Shown one piece after another: positions 6,109-44,661 of a stretch of DNA of 64,000 bases. Each line of letters begins with the position of its first letter. Positions within the stretch are counted from its first letter, which is position 1. Both the position numbers and the translations under genes were made by a program. The stretch spans positions 32 through 64,031 of the forward strand of contig JBAZHQ010000001.1 in NCBI GenBank assembly GCA_041652235.1. Reading direction: 5' to 3'. The stretch comes from Opitutaceae bacterium (GTDB lineage: Bacteria > Verrucomicrobiota > Verrucomicrobiia > Opitutales > Opitutaceae). The notes beneath the pieces are model-generated. The model did not search any database, was not told the DNA's origin, and saw nothing but the letters and a program-made list of their open reading frames with translations.

Positions 6109-6204
6109 TCAGAATGGTCTCGGGCACCACCAGCAGAAGCAGAACCACGCGAGCGTGCCCAGCAGGAGCATCCACCACCAGGCACGCTGCGCTCGGTTCG
6201 TCAC
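6109..6204 (-). CDS. Possible 31-aa hydrophobic peptide (below the track cutoff)
   Basis: Hand translation from GTG 6204 gives TNRAQRAWWWMLLLGTLAWFCFCWWCPRPF, with the stop at 6109-6111. It fills the gap between two genes. Confidence 0.25.
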   Translation of the reverse strand: MTNRAQRAWWWMLLLGTLAWFCFCWWCPRPF

Positions 6205-6213
6205 GACGTCACC

Positions 6214-6633
6214 CTAGTTGGTCGGCGAGGGTTCCGCGTCGTCTTTGTCCAGGAAGATCGGCAGAATCATGGGCAGGTACTTGAGAATCAGCTCAAGCAC
6301 CTTCTGCCAGTCGATGTTCAACCGACCCCCGACGGCTCGGCAGTAGGCTGTCACGGCGGGAGACGCCGCAAGCGCTTCACGGTCAAGTGCGGCAGGCATG
6401 GTCTGAAGATCGGCCCACATATCGCGGAACAACTGCCGGATCACGGCGTCCTGGGCCGTCACCCTGACCATCGCACACAACAGGTCGTCGATCTTGGTGG
6501 CTGTCGCCACGGCCCACGGCTCGACTGTATCGACGATCTTCAGGGCGAAGTCCAGCACCTTGTCGGGATCACCGATGATGCCCTTCAAGATATTCAAGAA
6601 CATCGCAATCAGAACGTTCACCAACTTGTCCAT
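6214..6633 (-). CDS. Hypothetical protein (139 aa)
   Basis: Internal ATG (MDKLVNV) is preceded by AAGGGGAAAAGGGAGCTGATC. The N-terminus is hydrophobic (VLIAMFLNIL). Confidence 0.5.
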   Translation of the reverse strand: MDKLVNVLIAMFLNILKGIIGDPDKVLDFALKIVDTVEPWAVATATKIDDLLCAMVRVTAQDAVIRQLFRDMWADLQTMPAALDREALAASPAVTAYCRAVGGRLNIDWQKVLELILKYLPMILPIFLDKDDAEPSPTN

Positions 6634-6714: not shown

Positions 6715-7179
6715 CTAGAACGCCTCCAACAACGCATCAAGAATCACCTCGCCGCATTGAACCAGGTCCACCTCGCCCAACCCCAGGAATTCCCGCTGCG
6801 GTATGTTACGATCTTGAAACCCGTAATTATGCACACCAGCCCCGGGGATGCCCCCAATACCTCCGTCCTTGTCCACACCAGTGAGCAGTGCATTGCCCTC
6901 GACCCGGCTCACATGCCCACCACCCATTCCGGATGCCGCTGCCATCAGGCTACCCGATCCCTCCGTGTTTGTCTCCACCAACAACGGGTGCCCGTCTCCC
7001 TCGATCTTCCGCGTTGGCCAAGCAACGCCATCCGGATTCGACTGCAGGACGAAGTTCTCGAAGATCCCCCGATCAACAATCGGCTTGCACTTCTCCAACG
7101 CCTGCGGAATGACGTCGCGGATCCGTGATGGAATCTGGTTGAGGTCTTCGGCAAACTGTTCTATGGTCTGACGTTTCAT
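6715..7179 (-). CDS. Virion morphogenesis / tail-completion protein (Mu gpG-like)
   Basis: Start at the internal ATG (MKRQTIE) with an ATGA overlap at 7176-7179. C-terminal GFQDRNIPQREFLGL resembles the R.FLG motif of the Mu G/virion morphogenesis family. It lies downstream of the head genes. Confidence 0.5.
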   Translation of the reverse strand: MKRQTIEQFAEDLNQIPSRIRDVIPQALEKCKPIVDRGIFENFVLQSNPDGVAWPTRKIEGDGHPLLVETNTEGSGSLMAAASGMGGGHVSRVEGNALLTGVDKDGGIGGIPGAGVHNYGFQDRNIPQREFLGLGEVDLVQCGEVILDALLEAF

Positions 7180-7526
7180 AGCTGCTTCCGGGCAACAACA
7201 TCTCGGGTAATCACGTCCACACCAAACCCACTTGAAGCAAGATGGCTCACGATCACCCACACCGTGGAATCGGAGGTTGTTATTGTATCCCCTCGTTCAG
7301 GAACGACATCGCCGAGTTGTTTGCAACCAAGACACCAAACGAAATCCGTGGGCTCCAGCCCAAGGTTGCCACCAAGCATCGCCTCACGAAAATTTAGGCT
7401 CCGCACGATCGCCTTGATTCCCGTCGTCTCCTCCCCTGTGACGCTGCCGGTCAGGGTGACCTCCTGAAGATCGTCCCGCAACTCGAAATCGTCGAGGAGC
7501 ATCTGAGCGTAGTCTGGTGTGGTCAT
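7176..7526 (-). CDS. Head-tail connector-like small protein
   Basis: 116 aa, with ATGA overlaps on both sides. The call rests on its position between the capsid and gpG-like genes. Confidence 0.4.
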   Translation of the reverse strand: MTTPDYAQMLLDDFELRDDLQEVTLTGSVTGEETTGIKAIVRSLNFREAMLGGNLGLEPTDFVWCLGCKQLGDVVPERGDTITTSDSTVWVIVSHLASSGFGVDVITRDVVARKQL

Positions 7527-7756
7527 GCTGGCCGGCCCTCAAGAGGTACTTCCCAGGGACCGGCCAAAACATCGATGAGCGCGCTCAGCTCCTTCAGCTC
7601 GCGATACAAACCGTCCTTGTAGCCCACATGGTCGACGGTTCCACCACCCCCTCCGCTTATGTTGGGCCTTCCCCCCGCAGCAGATGTGCTGAGCGCCGCC
7701 AGCTCGGTCATGATCGCCGTTCGGCGAGCCACGGCGTTCTCCAGATCTGTGGCCAT
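7523..7756 (-). CDS. Hypothetical small protein
   Basis: Track ORF 7523..7765 starts at a GTG. ATG 7756 lies 9 nt after GAGGG. The protein has a Gly-rich centre, GGGGGT. Confidence 0.4.
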   Translation of the reverse strand: MATDLENAVARRTAIMTELAALSTSAAGGRPNISGGGGGTVDHVGYKDGLYRELKELSALIDVLAGPWEVPLEGRPA

Positions 7757-38006: not shown

Positions 38007-38225
38007 TCAGTGAACGTGCCCGTCCTGCGTATGCTCGTGCAGAACATGTTGCATGCTGTGGCCAACCTCCAGCCTCGACCTCTTGCGAATGGTGGTCTCG
38101 CCGCCAACCGTATCGGCGAGCATCTTGAGCAGCCTATCGGCCGAAACATGATTCGGCCCACTCAAGTCGTCCGTGGTCACAGTGATGGTTCCGTCCTCCA
38201 GAATCTCATACTGAATCTTTGACAT
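38007..38225 (-). CDS. DUF2997-like small protein
   Basis: MSKIQYEILEDGTITVTTDDLSGPNHVSADRLLKMLADTVGGE matches my recollection of the DUF2997 pattern (short beta-hairpin I.DG.V....G..G..C......LE). Confidence 0.35.
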   Translation of the reverse strand: MSKIQYEILEDGTITVTTDDLSGPNHVSADRLLKMLADTVGGETTIRKRSRLEVGHSMQHVLHEHTQDGHVH

Positions 38226-38545
38226 CACAGCATCTCCCTCACAAAGGCCCCCTTGGTCACATTCTCGGTCTCGATCAACCAGCCGTTCAACTTCGCGGTC
38301 TGCTTGATCGCCTGCACACTGTAGGCGCGCTTCAATTCATTCACGCGAAATTGCTGCTGATCCTGGGCCACCACAACCCCAGCAGACAGATCGACGGTCA
38401 TCTCGTAGCCACCTTGGGGTCGCACTAGCACGCGAGCACCGCTCACCGCATAGGTCCAACCCAACGCCTGGATCGCCTTGATCAGCAGATCCTTGTGGGC
38501 TGCCTGAAATTCGACGGACACAGTCCGCACCTCGTAACAGGGCAT
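38225..38545 (-). CDS. DUF1257-like protein
   Basis: 106 aa with TGATG overlaps on both sides. KAIQALGW... resembles DUF1257 proteins, which accompany DUF2997 and AAA ATPases. Confidence 0.35.
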   Translation of the reverse strand: MPCYEVRTVSVEFQAAHKDLLIKAIQALGWTYAVSGARVLVRPQGGYEMTVDLSAGVVVAQDQQQFRVNELKRAYSVQAIKQTAKLNGWLIETENVTKGAFVREML

Positions 38546-39489
38546 CACAGAGTCTCCCTTTTTCTAAAGCTGATCGCACGTCGCGGCGCGACCTCCATCA
38601 AGGTATCGAGCGAAGAGATCACCCGGATCATCTCGTCCATCACCTCGCCACCGACAGCCGCCTGCCGCAGGCTACCTGCGCTCTTGCCTGCCAGCACCTC
38701 CCGCGCCTGGGAAACGAGATTTCCAAGCTCGGCGTCCCCGGTGATGTTCCGAGCCGAAAACAGATCTAAGAACTCGGTCAGCTTCGTCACCGCCGAAGCA
38801 TGAAGCCTCTTTCGACCCCCATCCGGATTCGGCATCAGCCGATCGGCGAGCCCACCAACCAGATCTCGGAATGCCTGCCGCAGGGCGGTGCGAATCTCCT
38901 CCGTGGCCTCCCGCCACGTGTTCTCGGCGCGCTTCTTTTCCACCTCCCACAGGGCCTTCCCCAGTTTGGCCTCGCTCGGGGTTCCGAAATCGAGCCACCG
39001 CCGTTCCACGGAAAAGGCTGCCCGCAGAACCGACTCCTCGGGATAGTTCCGAGGATCCCATTGATCCTTCAGCCGAATCCTGGCCTTCTCTTTCAGTTTC
39101 GGGTAGGCCGCCAGGAATTTCCTGGCGAGCCGTGCATACAAAAGATCGACCTCGTCCATGTGTGTGTTGACCGCGTCGATCAACTCAAGCGGGACCAGAT
39201 ATGTCCCGCGCTTCAGGGGGCTGGGAAGCGATCTGTTTTCCAGCCACCTCCGAGTGTCGCCGGCCAGTCGCAGCACACGTCGGTAGGATTTTGACACGAC
39301 GATGGCCTTCGTCAGGCCCAGCATCGCCTTGTCGGCGTCCGTCGACACCAGGGAGAGGTCCGCCTTGCGGCGGATCCCGGGCCGGTGGAACGTGACGTCC
39401 AGCACCACACACCTCTCCATCAAGCTCTTCGCCGAGGAGTCCACCCCAGCCAAACTGTCGGCCAGGGACAACCGTCTTCGCTTCGCCAT
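38545..39489 (-). CDS. DUF3150-like protein
   Basis: 314 aa. VLDVTFHRPGIRRKADL...LGLTKAIV...YLVPLELIDAV fits my memory of the DUF3150 layout. No search was possible. Confidence 0.35.
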   Translation of the reverse strand: MAKRRRLSLADSLAGVDSSAKSLMERCVVLDVTFHRPGIRRKADLSLVSTDADKAMLGLTKAIVVSKSYRRVLRLAGDTRRWLENRSLPSPLKRGTYLVPLELIDAVNTHMDEVDLLYARLARKFLAAYPKLKEKARIRLKDQWDPRNYPEESVLRAAFSVERRWLDFGTPSEAKLGKALWEVEKKRAENTWREATEEIRTALRQAFRDLVGGLADRLMPNPDGGRKRLHASAVTKLTEFLDLFSARNITGDAELGNLVSQAREVLAGKSAGSLRQAAVGGEVMDEMIRVISSLDTLMEVAPRRAISFRKRETL

Positions 39490-39500
39490 TTCAGTGTCTC

Positions 39501-40904
39501 CTATAAGCTGATCCGCCGACGTTGCCCAGCGTTAGGCTGTCGGCCGAAAAGGTCGCCAGTGCTCGCCCCCAGGTATCGTCCGTCCGCCTCCGACCGCAGG
39601 CTCTCCAGCTCCTGTGGTGCCGCCACGGCAACAGGCACAAAGTACCTCGCGGCCTCGCTGATGCTGCAGTCCAAATTCCAAGCAAGGTCGCAGCACGTCT
39701 TGATCTCCGCCCCAGTCCATTGGGAGTCCTGCGGCATTTCCTGTGTCGCGGCCTTCGGCAGCTTGTACTGCGTCTTGTAGTGCTTCCAGATCTTCCCCCG
39801 CTCCTCAGCCGTAGGAAGATCGAAGAAGTATGTGCCGAAATTAAACCGCCGCCGAAGCGCGGTCGGAATCCCCGCGATCGAATTGCAGGTCGCGATCCAG
39901 AGCGCGTTGTCGCTCGATACAGCCGAGATGACCTTGATCGCGTTGCGAACCGCGCCCTCGCTGGATCCGACCAGCCCGCCCTTCATCGCGTTCGAGTCCC
40001 ACGCAATCGTCGGCACCTTGGCCTCGCAGCCGACCGCTTTGGCCAGCATGCTTTTGCCGGCACCCGGTGGGCCGAGGAGAATCAACCCACGAGCGTTCTG
40101 ATCTTGCATCGATGTCAGCAGCGTTCCCAGGATCCCCTGGCTCACGCCAGAGCTGTCCGACCCCGCCCCGGACGACCCTGCCAGCATCTTTTCGATCTCA
40201 TCGATCCATACTATCGCGTTCGGCGGCCGTCGACCCTTGATAATCCGCCGCAGGAAACCCTTGATAAAATCGAGCCCACCAACATCCTTAAACGACTCGG
40301 TGCCCCGCCATACAGAGAGCCCCTTGGTTTGCTCGATCTGTTTCCGCTTCGAATCCCAGAGGTGATCCAGATCGATCCCATCCTCCCGCAGCGCCATCGC
40401 GACGGCCTGCTCAGCCGCAAAGCTCGACAACCCGCGAACCGCCTCGACCGCCTTCGCAGCCGTGGCGTCGTCCAGGGCGTCGTACCCAGCCGCCACCCGC
40501 GATCCATCACAATCCCGCACGATCGCGAGCAGCTCGTCGTCGCTCGGCAACAATTCGTCGAGCACGACGACATCGTTGATCAGCCCCGTCGGCAATTGAT
40601 GATCGCTGCCAAGCATCACCAGCATCCGATGATTCGCCTTGTAGGCGTCTCGGAGATTCCATACACCCTGCTCCACTCGCGGAGACAGGGCGAAGTACGC
40701 CGGAGCGTTTTGGTAGAACACGATCGTGTTCTCTGGATATTTCTCTGCCCGGGAGAGAAATATCGCGGGCTGCCCGATCGTGATGTCGTCGTCTCGATCG
40801 CCGGTCATACTGGCGACCTCACGGCCGGGCTCGTTGACGGGCAGAACCCCGCGACAAATATCCCATTGCACAATCGGAGCGTCGTTCCCAATCAACCCGC
40901 TCAC
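39501..40904 (-). CDS. Classic-clade AAA+ ATPase (main body)
   Basis: Walker A ILLGPPGAGKSMLAKAVG, Walker B IVWIDEIEK and SRH ATCNSIAGIPTALRRRFN. The track start is a GTG at 40904. See the N-terminal fragment 40901..40996. Confidence 0.8.
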   Translation of the reverse strand: MSGLIGNDAPIVQWDICRGVLPVNEPGREVASMTGDRDDDITIGQPAIFLSRAEKYPENTIVFYQNAPAYFALSPRVEQGVWNLRDAYKANHRMLVMLGSDHQLPTGLINDVVVLDELLPSDDELLAIVRDCDGSRVAAGYDALDDATAAKAVEAVRGLSSFAAEQAVAMALREDGIDLDHLWDSKRKQIEQTKGLSVWRGTESFKDVGGLDFIKGFLRRIIKGRRPPNAIVWIDEIEKMLAGSSGAGSDSSGVSQGILGTLLTSMQDQNARGLILLGPPGAGKSMLAKAVGCEAKVPTIAWDSNAMKGGLVGSSEGAVRNAIKVISAVSSDNALWIATCNSIAGIPTALRRRFNFGTYFFDLPTAEERGKIWKHYKTQYKLPKAATQEMPQDSQWTGAEIKTCCDLAWNLDCSISEAARYFVPVAVAAPQELESLRSEADGRYLGASTGDLFGRQPNAGQRRRISL

Positions 40905-40996
40905 CGACCGACAGTCGATGCCGGGTCTGGGGTGGCAATAGCCACGAGTGGCACGCTCACCCGACGGGCGTGCCCCAATTTGTCCAACCAGTTCAT
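40901..40996 (-). CDS. 31-codon ORF that looks like the true N-terminus of the AAA+ gene, out of frame by -1
   Basis: ATG 40996 is preceded by the conserved leader AAGGTAAGGGAGACTTGAA. It encodes MNWLDKLGHARRVSVPLVAIATPDPASTVGR and stops at 40901-40903, overlapping the GTG of the AAA ORF. Confidence 0.35.
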   Translation of the reverse strand: MNWLDKLGHARRVSVPLVAIATPDPASTVGR

Positions 40997-41015
40997 TTCA
41001 AGTCTCCCTTACCTT
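40997..41015 (-). promoter_or_regulatory. Start-associated leader, copy 1 (AAA+ gene)
   Basis: Minus strand reads AAGGTAAGGGAGACTTGAA directly before the ATG. Confidence 0.7.
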
Positions 41016-41689
41016 TACCTTGTTACGGAAAACGCGTCATACTCCAACTCTGCTCCATCGAACGTCAGAACCCCCACATAGTTGTTGCGAATCGCCTTGA
41101 TGGTCCCAGGCAGCCCGCTCGGAAGGCTCGCGAGGTAAAACCCACGCTTCGACTCGCCAAAACACAGCGGATTGCCCTTCCTGGCGATCATCAGCCGAAC
41201 GGGCTTGCGCCACAATCCCAGCATCGCCAACGGCGCGGTCGCCTGCTCGGCAGCCATCGCCGATCGCATCCCGATCTCGCCCGGGAAACGCGCGATCATC
41301 AACCCCAAGATCTCACTGTCGCATTCCGATTTCGGCCGCAGCCGGTACCGCCGAGATAGCTCGCGGTAGTTGCTCACCACCCCATTGTGTACGATCCAGC
41401 CGCTTCCGGCCGGATGGGGGTGATTGTTGCAATTATCCTCCGGATCTCCGTGGGTCGCCCATCGGCAGTGCCCGATCACCGCCAGGGCATCCCGGCATGC
41501 CTCCAGGGCCTCCAGGTTGGCCGACGCTGGGCCAGCCTGCTTGTAGGTATGGATTGCCCAAGACTGATCCACCCACGCAAGTCCGAAGGCGTGGCGGCCC
41601 CGCGTCTCGGTTTCCAGGGCGATGCGTTTCAGCCGATCGATATTCGGCCCCCGTCCGTTCTTCGTAATGAATCCGAAAATACCACACAT
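41015..41689 (-). CDS. Class II (Ntn) glutamine amidotransferase domain protein
   Basis: N-terminal nucleophile MCGIFGF, GHCRWATHG and HNGVVSNY motifs. Confidence 0.75.
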   Translation of the reverse strand: MCGIFGFITKNGRGPNIDRLKRIALETETRGRHAFGLAWVDQSWAIHTYKQAGPASANLEALEACRDALAVIGHCRWATHGDPEDNCNNHPHPAGSGWIVHNGVVSNYRELSRRYRLRPKSECDSEILGLMIARFPGEIGMRSAMAAEQATAPLAMLGLWRKPVRLMIARKGNPLCFGESKRGFYLASLPSGLPGTIKAIRNNYVGVLTFDGAELEYDAFSVTR

Positions 41690-41708
41690 GCTAAGTCTCC
41701 TTTACCTT
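41690..41708 (-). promoter_or_regulatory. Start-associated leader, copy 2 (GATase gene)
   Basis: Minus strand reads AAGGTAAAGGAGACTTAGC directly before the ATG. Confidence 0.7.
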
Positions 41709-41721
41709 TTGGGTTGCCTCA

Positions 41722-41770
41722 TCAGGTGGCGGGAACCCATCCCGCCACGACGCCCTTGCGGGCGTTTCGG
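41722..41770 (-). terminator. Two adjacent hairpins after the small gene (GNRA-loop hairpin plus a 9-bp hairpin)
   Basis: Minus strand reads ACGCCC-GCAA-GGGCGT, then GTGGCGGGA-TGGGT-TCCCGCCAC. No U-tract. Confidence 0.45.
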
Positions 41771-41771
41771 C

Positions 41772-42042
41772 CTAGTCCGCCGAGTTGATCCGATCCGCAA
41801 GCCCGCGCGCCTCCGCCAGGGCGCGTCCCAAAGCGGATCGCGGGCCGGTGTGCTCGCGGTACCCCACCCCACAATACTCGATCCGGATCCCGCGTCTCTC
41901 CGCAAGATCGCGGCGCAGCACCCGGAGCCGCTCCGCCCCCCTCGGGCACGACCTGCACCGCGACGTAGGTATCCGGCCCGCCAAATCGGTTCGCAACGCT
42001 TCCGCGTGAATGCTGACTTCTGATTTCAACATAAGCTTTCAT
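41772..42042 (-). pseudogene. Small gene apparently split by a frameshift in a G6 run
   Basis: MKAYVEIRSQHSRGSVANRFGGPDTYVAVQVVPEGG (frame of ORF 41722..42042) continues plausibly as AERLRVLRRDLAERRGIRIEYCGVGYREHTGPRSALGRALAEARGLADRINSAD (ORF 41772..42032). The frames switch at the C6/G6 run 41936-41941. Confidence 0.3.
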
Positions 42043-42074
42043 GGCTCAACTCCTGTTTGTATCCAATGCCAAAG

Positions 42075-42359
42075 TTACCGTTCCAAAACCCCTGGGCCGC
42101 TCTGGGCCGCCACCGACAAATGCCAGCCCACCACCTCGCCCATCCGATCGATGTTTGCAACCAACGCCCCCTTCCGCTCCAGCACCACGGCTGCCCGGAC
42201 CAGCCGGGCAAACCGCAGCATCTTGCTCTGCCCCAGCCTCGGCATCTGCTCGATGCTCAGGTACGCTACGGGGCCACCAACCTGCGACCACCGCGCGCCC
42301 AACTTAGCGAGCCGCAGCAGAACATCCTCTGCTGCAGCTACAAGATGACGATTGCCCAT
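42075..42359 (-). CDS. Hypothetical protein (94 aa)
   Basis: Internal ATG (MGNRHLV) is preceded by GAAAGGAGCATTCG. Confidence 0.4.
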   Translation of the reverse strand: MGNRHLVAAAEDVLLRLAKLGARWSQVGGPVAYLSIEQMPRLGQSKMLRFARLVRAAVVLERKGALVANIDRMGEVVGWHLSVAAQSGPGVLER

Positions 42360-42372
42360 CGAATGCTCCTTT

Positions 42373-43077
42373 CTATCGAACCCACCTGTGGGCCTCTTCC
42401 AATCGCGCGGGCCTGGCCTCGCCGGCCAGTACCTCACGAAACATTCTAGCGATCGTATCCCAGTAGGCCGCCTCAAGCTGCCTCGCGCGAAATTGCTTGG
42501 TCGTCTCGATGTTGTGCGCCGGCGACGTCGATCGCCCGTCGAAGTTGTCACCCATACAAAACCGCAGGGCATCGCTGTGGCCATAGTCGAGATACTCAAG
42601 AATCTCGTCCGAGGTTATCCTCTGCTCAGAAATCATCATCACCTGCGCCTCGCAGAACCGCACCCGATCCAGGGTCGCGATGGCCTGCACCGCACCCTCA
42701 AGCTTCCACGTGATCGCCGTCCGACAGTCCGCGATCGATTTGGCAACCTGATCCTGGAACGCCTTGATCTCCGCAACCAGATCTCGATCCCAGCTCGCCA
42801 GGCTCTTGAGGATCGCAGCCATCGCCTCGGCGATCTCGGGCCGGCCCCGCTCGGCGATCACCTGGCCCAACCGCTCGGCCTCGGCCTCGGCCTCGGCCAT
42901 CACGTGCTCCTCCCGGAGCCGCCGAACAACCGCATTGGCGTGGCAGACAAGCTGCGCCTTGGTCGCACGAACGCCATGGTGAGACACGTCGCATCCCCCG
43001 TCGATCAGGGCTTTGAAAAGCGACTCCTTCGTGGCGCGGCTGATCTCGTCGGTCGTCGTTTTGTACGTAAGATTCAT
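42373..43077 (-). CDS. Hypothetical helical protein (234 aa)
   Basis: Internal ATG (MNLTYKT) is preceded by TAGGAGACGAGAG. Confidence 0.5.
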   Translation of the reverse strand: MNLTYKTTTDEISRATKESLFKALIDGGCDVSHHGVRATKAQLVCHANAVVRRLREEHVMAEAEAEAERLGQVIAERGRPEIAEAMAAILKSLASWDRDLVAEIKAFQDQVAKSIADCRTAITWKLEGAVQAIATLDRVRFCEAQVMMISEQRITSDEILEYLDYGHSDALRFCMGDNFDGRSTSPAHNIETTKQFRARQLEAAYWDTIARMFREVLAGEARPARLEEAHRWVR

Positions 43078-43114
43078 CTCTCGTCTCCTATGCCAAAAGT
43101 GAATTTGCACCCCG

Positions 43115-43135
43115 GACGCCCTTGCGGGCGTTTCG
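43115..43135 (-). repeat. 21-nt hairpin repeat GACGCCCTTGCGGGCGTTTCG, copy 2
   Basis: Exact copy of 41749-41769. It sits between the amidoligase stop and the next start. Confidence 0.85.
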
Positions 43136-43161
43136 CCTGCCGCCGCAGGCTCGTCAGCGGG

Positions 43162-44016
43162 TTAGGTTTCCGCGTCGTACTTCTTGGCCAGCCGTCGAAA
43201 CTCCTTCTTGACGACCTTCTGGGTCTCGGCGTCGAGCATCCAGCCATACTGCTTGCCGTTGTGGATCCGGGCGTAGCCCTCGCCCCAAGCCAGGTAGCCC
43301 ATCAACCGCTCGGCCTCGCTTTGGCCCGGGCCGGCTTTGGCCCAGCCGCCCGTCAGCGGCTTGGGTGCCCAGCTCGGCATCCGATTCCCGTTCAAGGCCC
43401 GCTCGACCAGGCCGAGGCAAACCTGAATCCACCCGATCGCCTTGATCTCGTTCAGCGTGCCCGAGAAGGCCCGGAACTCAACCGTGTTCTTCGCCCCGGT
43501 CGCCAGGTTGCGGAGATTCAGGATGTGATAGCGATTCGCGTCCATCTGCCTCTTGGCGGCGGCCTGCGAACCGTACCGCTTGATCCCGTGGCAATAGCTG
43601 CCCCGCTCGCGATGCTTCGTGCCCGTGATCGCGTAGATCCCCGCCTCGGCGTAGGAGGTTATCGTGATCAGCCTGGCCAAGGCTTTGGCCGACCAATCCG
43701 GCCGCCACCCAACATGCACGTGGATCCCGCAGCTCTCGTTGACCAGATGGCCTTTGGCCACCAGGATCCGCATGACCTCGCGAACCTGGGCGAGTCCCTC
43801 GGCACCGCGAAGGATTGGGCTGACGATCTCGCAGCCCAGCGCACCGCTCCCCGACGGCCGGATCGAGCCATCCGATTGAGCCGTCCAGCCGGCCGGCAGG
43901 TAGGGCACCTGAATCCCGTGGCGGTACCCACCGACCACCAACCCAGCCGCAACCGAAGTCTGGGTTGCGATGGTCTCGATCTCGATCCCAAAGGTCAATT
44001 CTGTTACGTCTACCAT
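43162..44016 (-). CDS. Amidoligase_2-family (GCS2/glutamine-synthetase-like) enzyme
   Basis: FGIEIE at the N-terminus, CEIVSP, CGIHVHVG and TVEFRAF motifs are typical of the putative amidoligase family. Confidence 0.7.
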   Translation of the reverse strand: MVDVTELTFGIEIETIATQTSVAAGLVVGGYRHGIQVPYLPAGWTAQSDGSIRPSGSGALGCEIVSPILRGAEGLAQVREVMRILVAKGHLVNESCGIHVHVGWRPDWSAKALARLITITSYAEAGIYAITGTKHRERGSYCHGIKRYGSQAAAKRQMDANRYHILNLRNLATGAKNTVEFRAFSGTLNEIKAIGWIQVCLGLVERALNGNRMPSWAPKPLTGGWAKAGPGQSEAERLMGYLAWGEGYARIHNGKQYGWMLDAETQKVVKKEFRRLAKKYDAET

Positions 44017-44035
44017 CTCAAGTCTCCCTTACCTT
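44017..44035 (-). promoter_or_regulatory. Start-associated leader, copy 3 (amidoligase gene)
   Basis: Minus strand reads AAGGTAAGGGAGACTTGAG directly before the ATG. Confidence 0.7.
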
Positions 44036-44661
44036 GATCGCCAAACCCTCTGAGCGAAATGCTCAAGCAGCCCGTACCGGAGTCGAACCGGCGTCCATCT
44101 CTATTATTTTATGGACCCGCTCGGGCTGTGGGGCTCGCGTGCTAGGCGAGCCCGTGTATGCTTGTCGTCCTCTCCGCCTCCGTCCTGCAGCTCTGGCGTG
44201 GCCACCAGTGTCTTAGCCTGCTTCCGGGTTCGTTTGGGCTGCGGTATTTCAGCCTCCAGTCTCGGGTTCCCCCTGGTGCCGACCCCTCTAAACCTGCTCG
44301 CGCTTCCGGTCGGGGGTCGTCCTCGGTTTCGCCTCGCTGCCTCCTCCGCATCGTTTCCCGCACCTCTCGGGCCGCTTCTAGCTTTGCGTGTTCGTCGTTC
44401 GTTCGTTCCCTTGCCCCCTCGCCTTTAAGTATAATCTATAATCGACCCCTGGGAAGCTTCCCGGGACGGATTTTCCAAAGTATTTTTCCGCCGAGACGCA
44501 AACTGCCGCCACATATAGACTTACGGCGGGAAAAATCTTCTGCCTGACCGAAGATTTCCGAAACACAGGCCGGCCGGCCGGCTAGAAGTCCCTCAAAAAA
44601 ACGTCGTAAGTCCCTATGCCGTATAGAGATGGAAAATTCCCGAGCGTCAATCCCTCCAGGA
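44036..44661 (-). other. About 645-nt ORF-poor region, purine-rich on the transcribed strand (candidate ncRNA and/or origin)
   Basis: No convincing ORF on either strand. Contains (ACGA/GAAC)n, a GGCCGGCCGGCCGGC block, a GGGAAGCTTCCC palindrome, the AT-rich patch TATAATCTATAAT and several hairpins. Confidence 0.5.
44069..44127 (-). ncRNA. tRNA-like element lacking a D-arm (T-arm plus acceptor-like stem plus a 6-bp hairpin)
   Basis: Minus strand reads AGCCCGA-GCGG-GTCCAT[AAAATAATAGAG]ATGGAC-GCCGG-TTCGACT-CCGGT-ACGGGCT. It has a T-loop consensus and a 6/7-bp acceptor pairing but is only 59 nt, with no 7-nt anticodon loop. Confidence 0.3.

Follow-up and report, generated by a model that had tools for sequence, protein, structure and literature searches.

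Genes and features of the operon

The DNA analysed here, a 64,000-nucleotide (nt) stretch referred to as the window, belongs to a contig of 65,917 bp that was deposited as an Opitutaceae metagenome-assembled genome (MAG) and is most likely a phage genome. A nucleotide search of GenBank phages with the region returned zero matches. The interval 38007-44035 is the front of a minus-strand operon of approximately 6.4 kb (approximately 44430 to 38007). Following a long 5' untranslated region (UTR), the operon encodes an amidoligase, three open reading frames (ORFs) named orf234, orf94 and orf89, a class II glutamine amidotransferase (GATase), an AAA+ ATPase, a DUF3150-like protein and two conserved proteins, p106 and p72 (Table 1). 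A sequence-only reading of this interval had drawn attention to a 19-nt leader before the amidoligase, GATase and AAA+ genes and to a repeated hairpin between genes, and had proposed a single enzymatic cassette under co-ordinated translational control. Here we describe the hammerhead ribozyme motifs, tRNA-like elements and start regions of this operon together with the origin of its genes.

Table 1. Features of the operon in window coordinates, listed from its head downstream
Feature	Coordinates	Strand	Basis
Promoter-like site (TTCCCA, 16 nt, TATACT) at operon head	44428..44455	-	Consensus scan, 9/12 matches; weak
Purine-rich 5' UTR, approximately 390 nt, without plausible ORF	44036..44427	-	Rfam: none above threshold
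tRNA-like minihelix	44068..44128	-	Fold and L021 conservation
Hairpin UUGAGC-AUUUC-GCUCAG between minihelix and leader copy 3	44050..44066	-	Fold
Leader copy 3 (AAGGTAAGGGAGACTTGAG), translation initiation region of amidoligase gene	44017..44035	-	Sequence match
Amidoligase_2 gene, 284 amino acids (aa)	43162..44016	-	PF12224, 90.2 bits; phrog_2443, E 1e-31
Type I hammerhead candidate	43109..43163	-	RF00163, 28.3 bits (threshold 34)
orf234, without family match	42373..43077	-	ORF and profile searches
orf94, without family match	42075..42359	-	ORF and profile searches
orf89, broken in window, intact (89 aa) in L024	41772..42042	-	Assembly comparison
Type II hammerhead	41708..41772	-	RF02276, 47.6 bits (threshold 37)
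Leader copy 2 (AAGGTAAAGGAGACTTAGC), translation initiation region of GATase gene	41690..41708	-	Sequence match
Stand-alone class II (Ntn) glutaminase-domain gene, 224 aa, N-terminus MCGIFG	41015..41689	-	PF13522, 47.6 bits
Leader copy 1 (AAGGTAAGGGAGACTTGAA), overlapping GATase stop codon TAA	40997..41015	-	Sequence match
AAA+ ATPase gene, -1 frameshift near 40905 (GTGA overlap)	39501..40996	-	PF00004, 57.9 bits
DUF3150-like gene, 314 aa	38545..39489	-	PF11348, 17.5 bits, below cut-off 24.9
p106, conserved 106-aa protein (invariant MPCYEVRT...NxLKRAYS)	38225..38545	-	Homologue comparison
p72, conserved 72-aa protein	38007..38225	-	Homologue comparison

We used L024 (Logan assembly SRR18595300), which is 99.985% identical to the window, as a second assembly. 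L024 differs from the window by one base: a G run at 41941-41936 (minus strand) has six residues in the window, where it splits orf89, versus five in L024, where the ORF ends at a TAG that abuts the hammerhead. This difference probably reflects an assembly error in the homopolymer or variation within the population. Homologues of orf234 were found in none of the relative loci examined.

The repeated hairpin is the core of two hammerhead motifs

The sequence-only reading had regarded an exactly repeated GNRA-loop hairpin as punctuation between the genes. The repeat is real, as the 21-nt sequence CGAAACGCCCGCAAGGGCGTC is identical at 41769-41749 and 43135-43115 of the minus strand, but its identity had been missed: it constitutes stem III and the GAAA/GUC core of two minus-strand hammerheads. 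A lenient structural pattern yields exactly one type I and one type II match in the window, compared with 0.017 (type I) and 0.033 (type II) matches per shuffled window.

The type II element starts directly at the orf89 stop codon TAG and matches the full Rfam model (positions 1-66) with an E-value of 1.2e-6. Its 5' part comprises the stem II 3' strand (GCC), GAAA, stem III (CGCCC-GCAA-GGGCG) and U-C, and its 3' part comprises stem I (GUGGCGGGA-UGGGU-UCCCGCCAC), CUGAUGA, the stem II 5' strand (GGC) and the tail ACCCA. The core nucleotides are CUGAUGA at 41725-41719, GAAA at 41768-41765, with an A15.1-U16.1 pair, and GUC at 41751-41749, and cleavage is predicted after C41749, between 41749 and 41748. 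Stem I (9 bp) and stem III (6 bp) are closed by loops while stem II (3 bp) is open, and the stem I loop UGGGU forms a pseudoknot with the 3' tail ACCCA (41714-41710). By its core, score, fold and covariation (see below) this element is a type II hammerhead ribozyme, for which self-cleavage is predicted. The very short stem II and the 5-bp pseudoknot immediately downstream are shared with the type II hammerheads of Perreault et al., in which the pseudoknot between loop I and the tail is needed for fast cleavage (PMC3088659).

The second element, a type I candidate, starts at the amidoligase stop codon TAA and has the layout CCCG / CUGACGA / GCCUGC-GGCG-GCAGGC / GAAA / CGCCC-GCAA-GGGCG / UC / CGGG. 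It matches RF00163 over its full length with an E-value of 2.7e-5 in a 201-nt search, which corresponds to roughly 0.01 when scaled to the whole window. Its core is complete (CUGACGA, in which position 7 is free, GAAA and GUC) and is surrounded by three helices, with a 4-bp stem I that is open, a 6-bp stem II capped by a GGCG loop and a 5-bp stem III capped by a GCAA loop. Cleavage is predicted after C43115, between 43115 and 43114.

Type II hammerheads covary across related loci

We compared the window with ten IMG/VR loci (L001-L010) whose amidoligases are 59-68% identical to that of the window. Type II hammerheads, detected by Rfam or pattern scan, occur in six of these ten loci in seven copies. 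They directly follow the amidoligase stop codon in L002, L005 and L009, which is the position of the type I candidate in the window, and the GATase stop codon in L001 and L006; in L010 the copy lies upstream. All eight type II copies examined in detail, including that of the window, contain GAAA, GUC and CUGAnGA, and all except the L010 copy (7/8) start 0-1 nt past a TGA, TAA or TAG triplet. In the case of the window, L001, L002, L005, L006a and L009, this triplet terminates the upstream gene.

Covariation in these copies extends from the stems to the pseudoknot, which takes the forms TGGGT/ACCCA, TGGTT/AGCCA, TGGCT/AGCCA and TGGGT/GCCCA among the eight copies. Across a nine-copy alignment, which was fitted to the model and so favours the structure, pairing holds in 98.4% of the cells of stems I and III, and both sides have changed in 7 of 14 pairs; none of 500 shuffles reached the observed values, and controls in which the alignment was slid were 34-58% paired. 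A lineage-specific model built from the type II copies and run on loci related to the window through the AAA+ region, referred to here as backbone relatives, adds two copies with a complete core: one in L025 (5173-5248), which follows a stop codon, and one in L032 (3790-3861), which lies between an inserted gene, ORF98, and the DUF3150 gene. Among loci with distant amidoligase homologues and backbone relatives, scans at the Rfam gathering score returned nothing relevant in L011-L016, L018 and L020-L022, and nothing at all in L017, L023, L025, L027 and L029. We were also unable to locate the one hammerhead of phage PaP3 that Perreault et al. tested by an Rfam E-value scan of 20800-45503 and a relaxed pattern scan.

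Overall, the type I copy and ten of ten type II copies retain every nucleotide of the invariant core, and the stems differ by compensatory changes. Since the core is kept while stems and pseudoknot covary, selection appears to act on the catalytic fold and not on the hairpin. This bears on the possibility that the motifs are inactive relics whose GC-rich hairpins serve only as passive 3' stabilisers or as transcription pause sites. The type I candidate, with a score below the Rfam threshold, a short stem I and an unremarkable fold z-score (-0.52 for the region), would fit such a relic, but the invariant core nucleotides, the compensatory stem changes and the covarying pseudoknot make this explanation very improbable.

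The genes belong to two modules

Pfam supports the three enzymes named by the sequence-only reading (as Amidoligase_2, GATase_6 and AAA), with scores above the respective cut-offs of 22, 27 and 21.2 bits (Table 1). In the GATase, the catalytic cysteine directly follows the initiator methionine. Among solved structures, the nearest match is 1xff, the GlmS glutaminase domain in isolation (E 4.5e-13 over query residues 2-188), and the protein is a stand-alone GlmS-type glutaminase domain without a synthase domain. A sequence search for a solved structure related to the amidoligase found no relative.

As had been anticipated from comparative genomics, the amidoligase and GATase genes form a pair: a GATase gene adjoins or lies close to the amidoligase gene in eight of the ten closest loci, and the pairing extends over several phage groups. 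Homologues of the amidoligase from cultured phages are approximately 30% identical. The ten loci share with the window only the amidoligase and GATase genes, the sequences upstream of these genes are quite unlike those in the window, and no AAA+ or DUF3150 gene adjoins them. These data indicate that amidoligase and GATase are a horizontally mobile pair, usually accompanied by an adjacent hammerhead in this subfamily. Such pairs have been reported in several phage groups (PMC3890496, PMC10945688, and a passage of PMC10580990 that cites Iyer et al. 2009). Similar to the pairs in LUZ24-like phages, PaP3 (PMC3890496) and Phage-ZRK32 (PMC10945688), PF12224 and PF13522 lie near each other in an early or non-structural region of the window; unlike in the known pairs, they are split by three ORFs without known function that are bounded by ribozymes, and the ATP-grasp, COOH-NH2 ligase and gamma-glutamyl cyclotransferase partners found in PaP3 are absent. 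Published suggestions for the function of amidoligase and GATase extend from cell-wall modification to nitrogen metabolism. As a low-confidence guess, the pair may be a two-subunit amidotransferase in which the glutaminase would feed ammonia to an ATP-dependent carboxylate-amine ligase.

The AAA+ gene and the genes past it have a different distribution. L021, an IMG/VR contig of 55.8 kb, is the closest backbone relative and shares with the window, in the same order, DnaB-like and SNF2 helicases, AAA+ (71% identity), the DUF3150-like protein (57%), p106, p72 and a sigma-like protein, p188. L021 contains no amidoligase or GATase; three unrelated ORFs occupy the slot between a conserved tRNA-like element and the AAA+ gene. 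In the more distant contigs L025-L029, the AAA+ gene, p106 and small ORFs are retained together with a true PF11348 protein, and SNF2 and primase genes lie next to them. Neither an amidoligase nor a GATase was found in any of 79 metagenome loci with AAA+ homologues, or in L021, L025, L027 and L029. From these distributions, the proposed cassette resolves into two units, the mobile amidoligase/GATase pair and a conserved AAA+/DUF3150-like/p106/p72 backbone module.

The AAA+ gene itself is not a simple ORF. The ATG at 40996, which had been taken as its start, opens only 31 codons that end at the TGA at 40903-40901, and the body of the gene resumes in the -1 frame at a GTG (40904) that overlaps this TGA (GTGA, 40904-40901). 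The remaining 467 codons contain the AAA domain (within 40904-39501). The gene is called frameshifted in the window because six relatives (L021, L031-L034 and L041) have a single intact ORF; L024 carries the same frameshift. A programmed frameshift was rejected: the site lacks a slippery heptamer, and the shift occurs in this genome only. More likely is a real mutation, which could be inactivating, or termination-reinitiation at the GTGA overlap. Membership of a defence system was also considered and rejected, as the AAA+ domain shows only weak IetA-like similarity.

The family assignments suggested for the small genes fared unevenly. The match of the DUF3150-like protein to PF11348 is sub-threshold (E 0.0027; Table 1), yet syntenic homologues in L027 and L029 with 35-36% identity carry PF11348 on record. 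In contrast, the suggested matches of p106 to DUF1257 and of p72 to DUF2997 found no support in hidden Markov model (HMM) profile matches, by which family assignment was judged in place of profile-profile comparison. Neither protein matches Pfam at E<=10, none of 18 p106 homologues matches DUF1257 at E<=1, and none of 23 p106 homologues and 18 p72 homologues has a Pfam domain on record.

The leader belongs to a start motif found across the clade

As the sequence-only reading had observed, the minus strand has nearly the same 19-mer flush against each of three ATGs, at 44016, 41689 and 40996. The 18-mer AAGGTAAGGGAGACTTGA is exact at 41015-40998 and 44035-44018 and has a copy with three mismatches at 41708-41691, each ending one base before the ATG. 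Shuffles give an expectation of 0.01 matches with up to three mismatches in 64 kb against these three, and no further copy was found in the window at this tolerance. The first base of copy 2 is also the last base of the Rfam match to the type II hammerhead (41708). An antisense partner for the leader was sought and rejected, as neither strand of the window holds a complementary copy.

The 3' two-thirds of the leader reach beyond three genes, since GGAGAC followed by a start codon within 3-10 nt is present at 15 ORF starts in the window, including five more genes of the operon. Versions of the whole motif are widespread in backbone relatives. In L021 they precede ORF69 (TTAGGTAAAGGACACTAGAATG), ORF80 (CTAGGTAGAGGATACTAGAATG) and the DUF3150 homologue (CTAGGCAAAGGACACTATCATG); in L032, GCAAAGGAGACTAAGCGATG precedes ORF64 and AAA+ and variants precede ORF88, ORF98 and the DUF3150 gene, so that within the 6.2 kb of L032 all five copies of the motif stand before starts. 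L027 has CGAAGGAGACTTGAGATG before the AAA+ gene and leader versions before many others, and six of seven motif copies in L029 precede starts. The motif is absent from the amidoligase-side loci L001-L020. Since variants precede many unrelated genes in L021, L032, L027 and L029, the leader is, by sequence comparison, best regarded as a translation initiation region common to unrelated genes at the level of the clade (A-A/G-GGA-n-AC, 3-6 nt, ATG), of which the window holds its best version in these three copies.

The comparison with the start-associated sequences (SAS) of Cluster K mycobacteriophages, drawn in the sequence-only reading, was apt. Similar to SAS (PMC3203893), the leader is a short asymmetric motif that stands in one orientation a few nt before the ATGs of non-structural genes, has a Shine-Dalgarno (SD) core with conserved flanks and is conserved across relatives before different gene families. 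The two differ in sequence (AGGTAARGGAGACT in the window versus the 13-bp SAS consensus GGGATAGGAGCCC), in number (three full copies, or approximately seven with the core, versus 11-19 per Cluster K genome) and in context, as the window lacks extended inverted repeats and its motif often follows an RNA-processing element. The leader is an analogue of SAS and not a member.

These distributions argue against the claim that the leader is a dedicated translational operator which co-regulates amidoligase, GATase and AAA+ in one pathway with the small DUF genes. A leader shared by many unrelated genes is also what the sequence-only reading had named as refuting its proposal, and this is what is observed across the clade. 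Such an operator would account for three near-identical copies that are the only ones in 64 kb and all abut ATGs, and for flanks conserved beyond the SD core as in SAS, whose function is also unknown. However, the motif family precedes unrelated genes in four relatives, AAA+ occurs without amidoligase and GATase in 79 metagenome loci and four others, and the same is true in reverse; the AAA+ gene of the window carries a frameshift, and the regions upstream of the nearest amidoligase and GATase homologues are very unlike those of the window. We therefore consider a private operator very improbable, and found no evidence for a three-enzyme AAA+/GATase/amidoligase pathway under its control.

The identity of leader copies 1 and 3 might be a footprint of recombination, in which the block from amidoligase to GATase entered an L021/L032-like backbone at the AAA+ start region and that region was duplicated on both sides of the block, or in which gene conversion later made the copies alike. 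The 3.0-kb block delimited exactly by copies 3 and 1 has no counterpart between the tRNA-like element and AAA+ in L021. Furthermore, ORF98 and a type II hammerhead of L032 are inserted between AAA+ and the DUF3150 gene with a AAGGAGACTAAGC-type start on each side, and a partial tandem duplication (AAGGTAA-AGGTAAGGG) is present at the GATase stop codon. However, no known donor carries the leader, and the motif is absent from L001-L020. Copy 2 lies within the block and carries the motif too, a feature for which duplication of the borders alone does not account. We hold this account to be possible though doubtful; it addresses only the 18/18 identity of copies 1 and 3 and is compatible with the leader being a general start region.

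tRNA-like minihelices occupy equivalent positions

The minihelix in the 5' UTR has an acceptor stem of 7 bp, a hairpin whose 6-bp stem closes an A-rich loop of 12 nt, and a T arm (GCCGG/UUCGACU/CCGGU); it lacks both a D arm and an anticodon loop. The tRNA-like part is the only conserved part of the UTR in L021 (6689-6746), where the minimum-energy fold is the same, the sequence is 78% identical and the acceptor stem shows compensatory changes from C-G to U-A and from A-U to G-C. A true tRNA or transfer-messenger RNA (tmRNA) was rejected, as ARAGORN was negative in the window and the Rfam tRNA-Sec match reached 18.9 bits versus a required 47. The T arm and 3' acceptor strand match 27 nt of tRNA-Glu. 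An origin as a phage attachment site (attP) copy of the 3' end of a host tRNA is not favoured, as there is no evidence of a bacterial attachment site (attB) and the 5' acceptor strand covaries. The sole match to the T arm in the genome collection is a tRNA-Glu(CUC) within a seven-tRNA array (6768-7697) of L110; this 65-kb contig, from a MAG with the label Actinomycetales, may be a phage in its own right.

A model and pattern scan revealed shorter minihelices, consisting of acceptor stem and T arm, in the intercistronic spacers of L027 (536-580, 4183-4225 and 4531-4572, with a variant T loop at approximately 6160-6215) and L029 (3041-3081 and 4615-4660). Their acceptor stems have wholly different sequences, yet all are fully paired. 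Seven minihelices, all of them on the gene strand, have a hairpin after them and a AAGGAGAC-type start 32-41 nt downstream; this hairpin, which corresponds to that of the window, accompanies all minihelices of L021, L027 and L029. The DUF3150 gene is preceded by a minihelix in L029 and by a type II hammerhead in L032. That hammerheads and minihelices occupy equivalent slots across sister phages is a convergence that supports the hypothesis of messenger RNA (mRNA) processing.

Judged from sequence and position, the minihelices may be RNase P processing signals in slots equivalent to those of the hammerheads. Model substrates made of acceptor and T stem-loop are cleaved by RNase P, as are some phage and polycistronic RNAs, and the acceptor stem stacked on a T stem-loop that we describe corresponds to the minimal substrate (PMC11143913). 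The present loci differ from cases of tRNA punctuation in that the minihelices are degenerate, are not tRNA genes, encode no 3' CCA and lie inside phage mRNA leaders and spacers. In mitochondria, tRNAs punctuate polycistronic RNAs.

Two further kinds of untranslated sequence were observed near these elements. Upstream of the minihelix, a G+A-rich stretch of approximately 300 nt (44427-44130, minus strand) has no Rfam match, and a similarly purine-rich stretch of L021 (6400-6690) cannot be aligned to it. A structured motif (...GACGGAGCGGGCCGAC-nn-CCGG... beside a long GC hairpin) is common to L027 2063-2164 and 3025-3116 and L029 969-1135; these spacers lie just upstream of AAGGAG-type starts, have no match at the Rfam gathering score and might contain another processing element.

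A model for the division of the operon mRNA

We consider it probable that three propositions jointly offer the best explanation of the locus: that hammerheads divide the operon mRNA between genes, that the leader is a general ribosome-binding region, and that the genes derive from two modules. The transcript would carry three processing elements, namely the minihelix in the 5' UTR, the type I hammerhead past the amidoligase stop codon and the type II hammerhead past the orf89 stop codon. Self-cleavage after C43115 and C41749 would yield three mRNA pieces: the UTR with amidoligase, a 1366-nt piece with orf234-orf94-orf89, and a piece with GATase-AAA+-DUF3150-p106-p72. Each of the upstream pieces would have the stem III hairpin and a 2',3'-cyclic phosphate at its 3' end. 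The piece past the type II element would carry a 5'-OH and open with the 9-bp hairpin of stem I, and a strong ribosome-binding region would come approximately 20 nt after this hairpin. The minihelix would probably be cut by RNase P. The predicted outcome, which builds on the proposal of Perreault et al. (PMC3088659), is that stability and translation of each group of cistrons would become independent of the sequence upstream.

Perreault et al. demonstrated cleavage by clusters of prophage hammerheads and proposed a role in the processing of long phage transcripts (PMC3088659). The window resembles these clusters in that several hammerheads lie close together between the genes of a phage operon and the flanked genes are not constant. 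It differs in that the type I and type II elements share an identical 21-nt core and stem III, and in that most copies described here start 0-1 nt past the upstream stop codon and are followed by a ribosome-binding region typical of the clade.

Double cleavage raises the question of the fate of the middle fragment. Perreault et al. considered for clustered hammerheads that the RNA between two ribozymes may be excised (PMC3088659), and here the 1366-nt orf234-orf94-orf89 RNA could be released for circularisation or for splicing of its flanks, its 5'-OH and 2',3'-cyclic phosphate being suited to RtcB-type ligases. Self-circularisation is unlikely because the fragment lacks the CUGAnGA core and cannot re-form a hammerhead, and by sequence inspection the joined flanks do not rebuild a ribozyme either. 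Such products were looked for by Perreault et al. and none was found (PMC3088659). Excision for circularisation or splicing is, in our view, scarcely credible.

Several observations weigh against the joint explanation given above. Ribozyme activity at the locus is deduced from motif and covariation. The type I candidate scores below its gathering threshold, goes unreported in a scan of the whole window, has a stem I of only 4-5 bp and has no type I counterpart in the relatives; inspection and folding found neither a tertiary contact between its stems I and II nor a pseudoknot partner, and since no such contact was found the element may be slow at cellular magnesium. Hammerheads are not obligatory, since they are absent from L021, the closest backbone relative, and from distant amidoligase loci. 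The lenient minihelix scanner gives approximately three chance matches per shuffle (approximately 1 Mb of loci, both strands), and because the scanner alone is unspecific the reality of the minihelices rests on context and covariation. The 18/18 identity of leader copies 1 and 3 is greater than selection for a consensus would require. The conserved AGGTAA prefix and ACT suffix of the leader are also not known to be explained by pairing with a typical 3' end of 16S rRNA.

Each component of the proposed arrangement has a precedent, whether phage-operon hammerheads, start motifs, amidoligase/GATase pairs or RNase P substrates. The informative comparative pattern suggested by the sequences is the succession of a hammerhead or minihelix, usually a hairpin, and then a standard start region. 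We tentatively propose, with less confidence than the division of the mRNA itself, that the intercistronic spacers of this clade are interchangeable parts, each a hammerhead or an RNase P-cut minihelix, mostly with a hairpin, and then a ribosome-binding region, in the manner of an "insulator plus RBS" (ribosome-binding site). The engineered RiboJ insulator of Lou et al. 2012 is said to combine a self-cleaving hammerhead and a hairpin before a ribosome-binding site, giving a defined 5' end and context-independent expression; the layout of the window appears comparable but is natural and is deduced from sequence. If the proposal is true, such units would let acquired genes, such as amidoligase and GATase here or ORF98 in L032, insert and be expressed independently of context. 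It would also provide a testable function for bacterial and phage hammerheads. Although hammerheads and other small self-cleaving ribozymes are frequent in the vicinity of phage genes, reviews describe their role in bacteria as elusive, and it is still called unknown (PMC6765202).

The locus and its relatives offer a compact comparative case, in which a ribozyme lies mostly between a stop codon and the next ribosome-binding region and travels with a mobile gene pair. The joint occurrence of a hammerhead and an amidoligase gene was mentioned in no paper of the literature that we searched. Weinberg et al. 2015 reportedly list gene classes enriched near ribozymes.

Sequences flanking the operon

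At the operon head, a GC hairpin followed by a T-rich stretch (44582-44569) lies just upstream of the promoter-like site. At the other end, a strong promoter-like site (TTGACA, 17 nt, TATCAT; 38002-37974, minus strand) is found directly past the p72 stop codon. The next gene encodes the 188-aa protein p188 (37925-37359, minus strand), which has a weak ECF sigma-70 match (TIGR02937, E 5.5e-4) and is kept in L021 and L032. It is followed by a gene for a 296-aa protein (37349-36459, minus strand) with long stretches of repeated KPAKPA and a block of acidic, D/E-rich repeats, and most of the direct-repeat families reported in the region derive from this gene.

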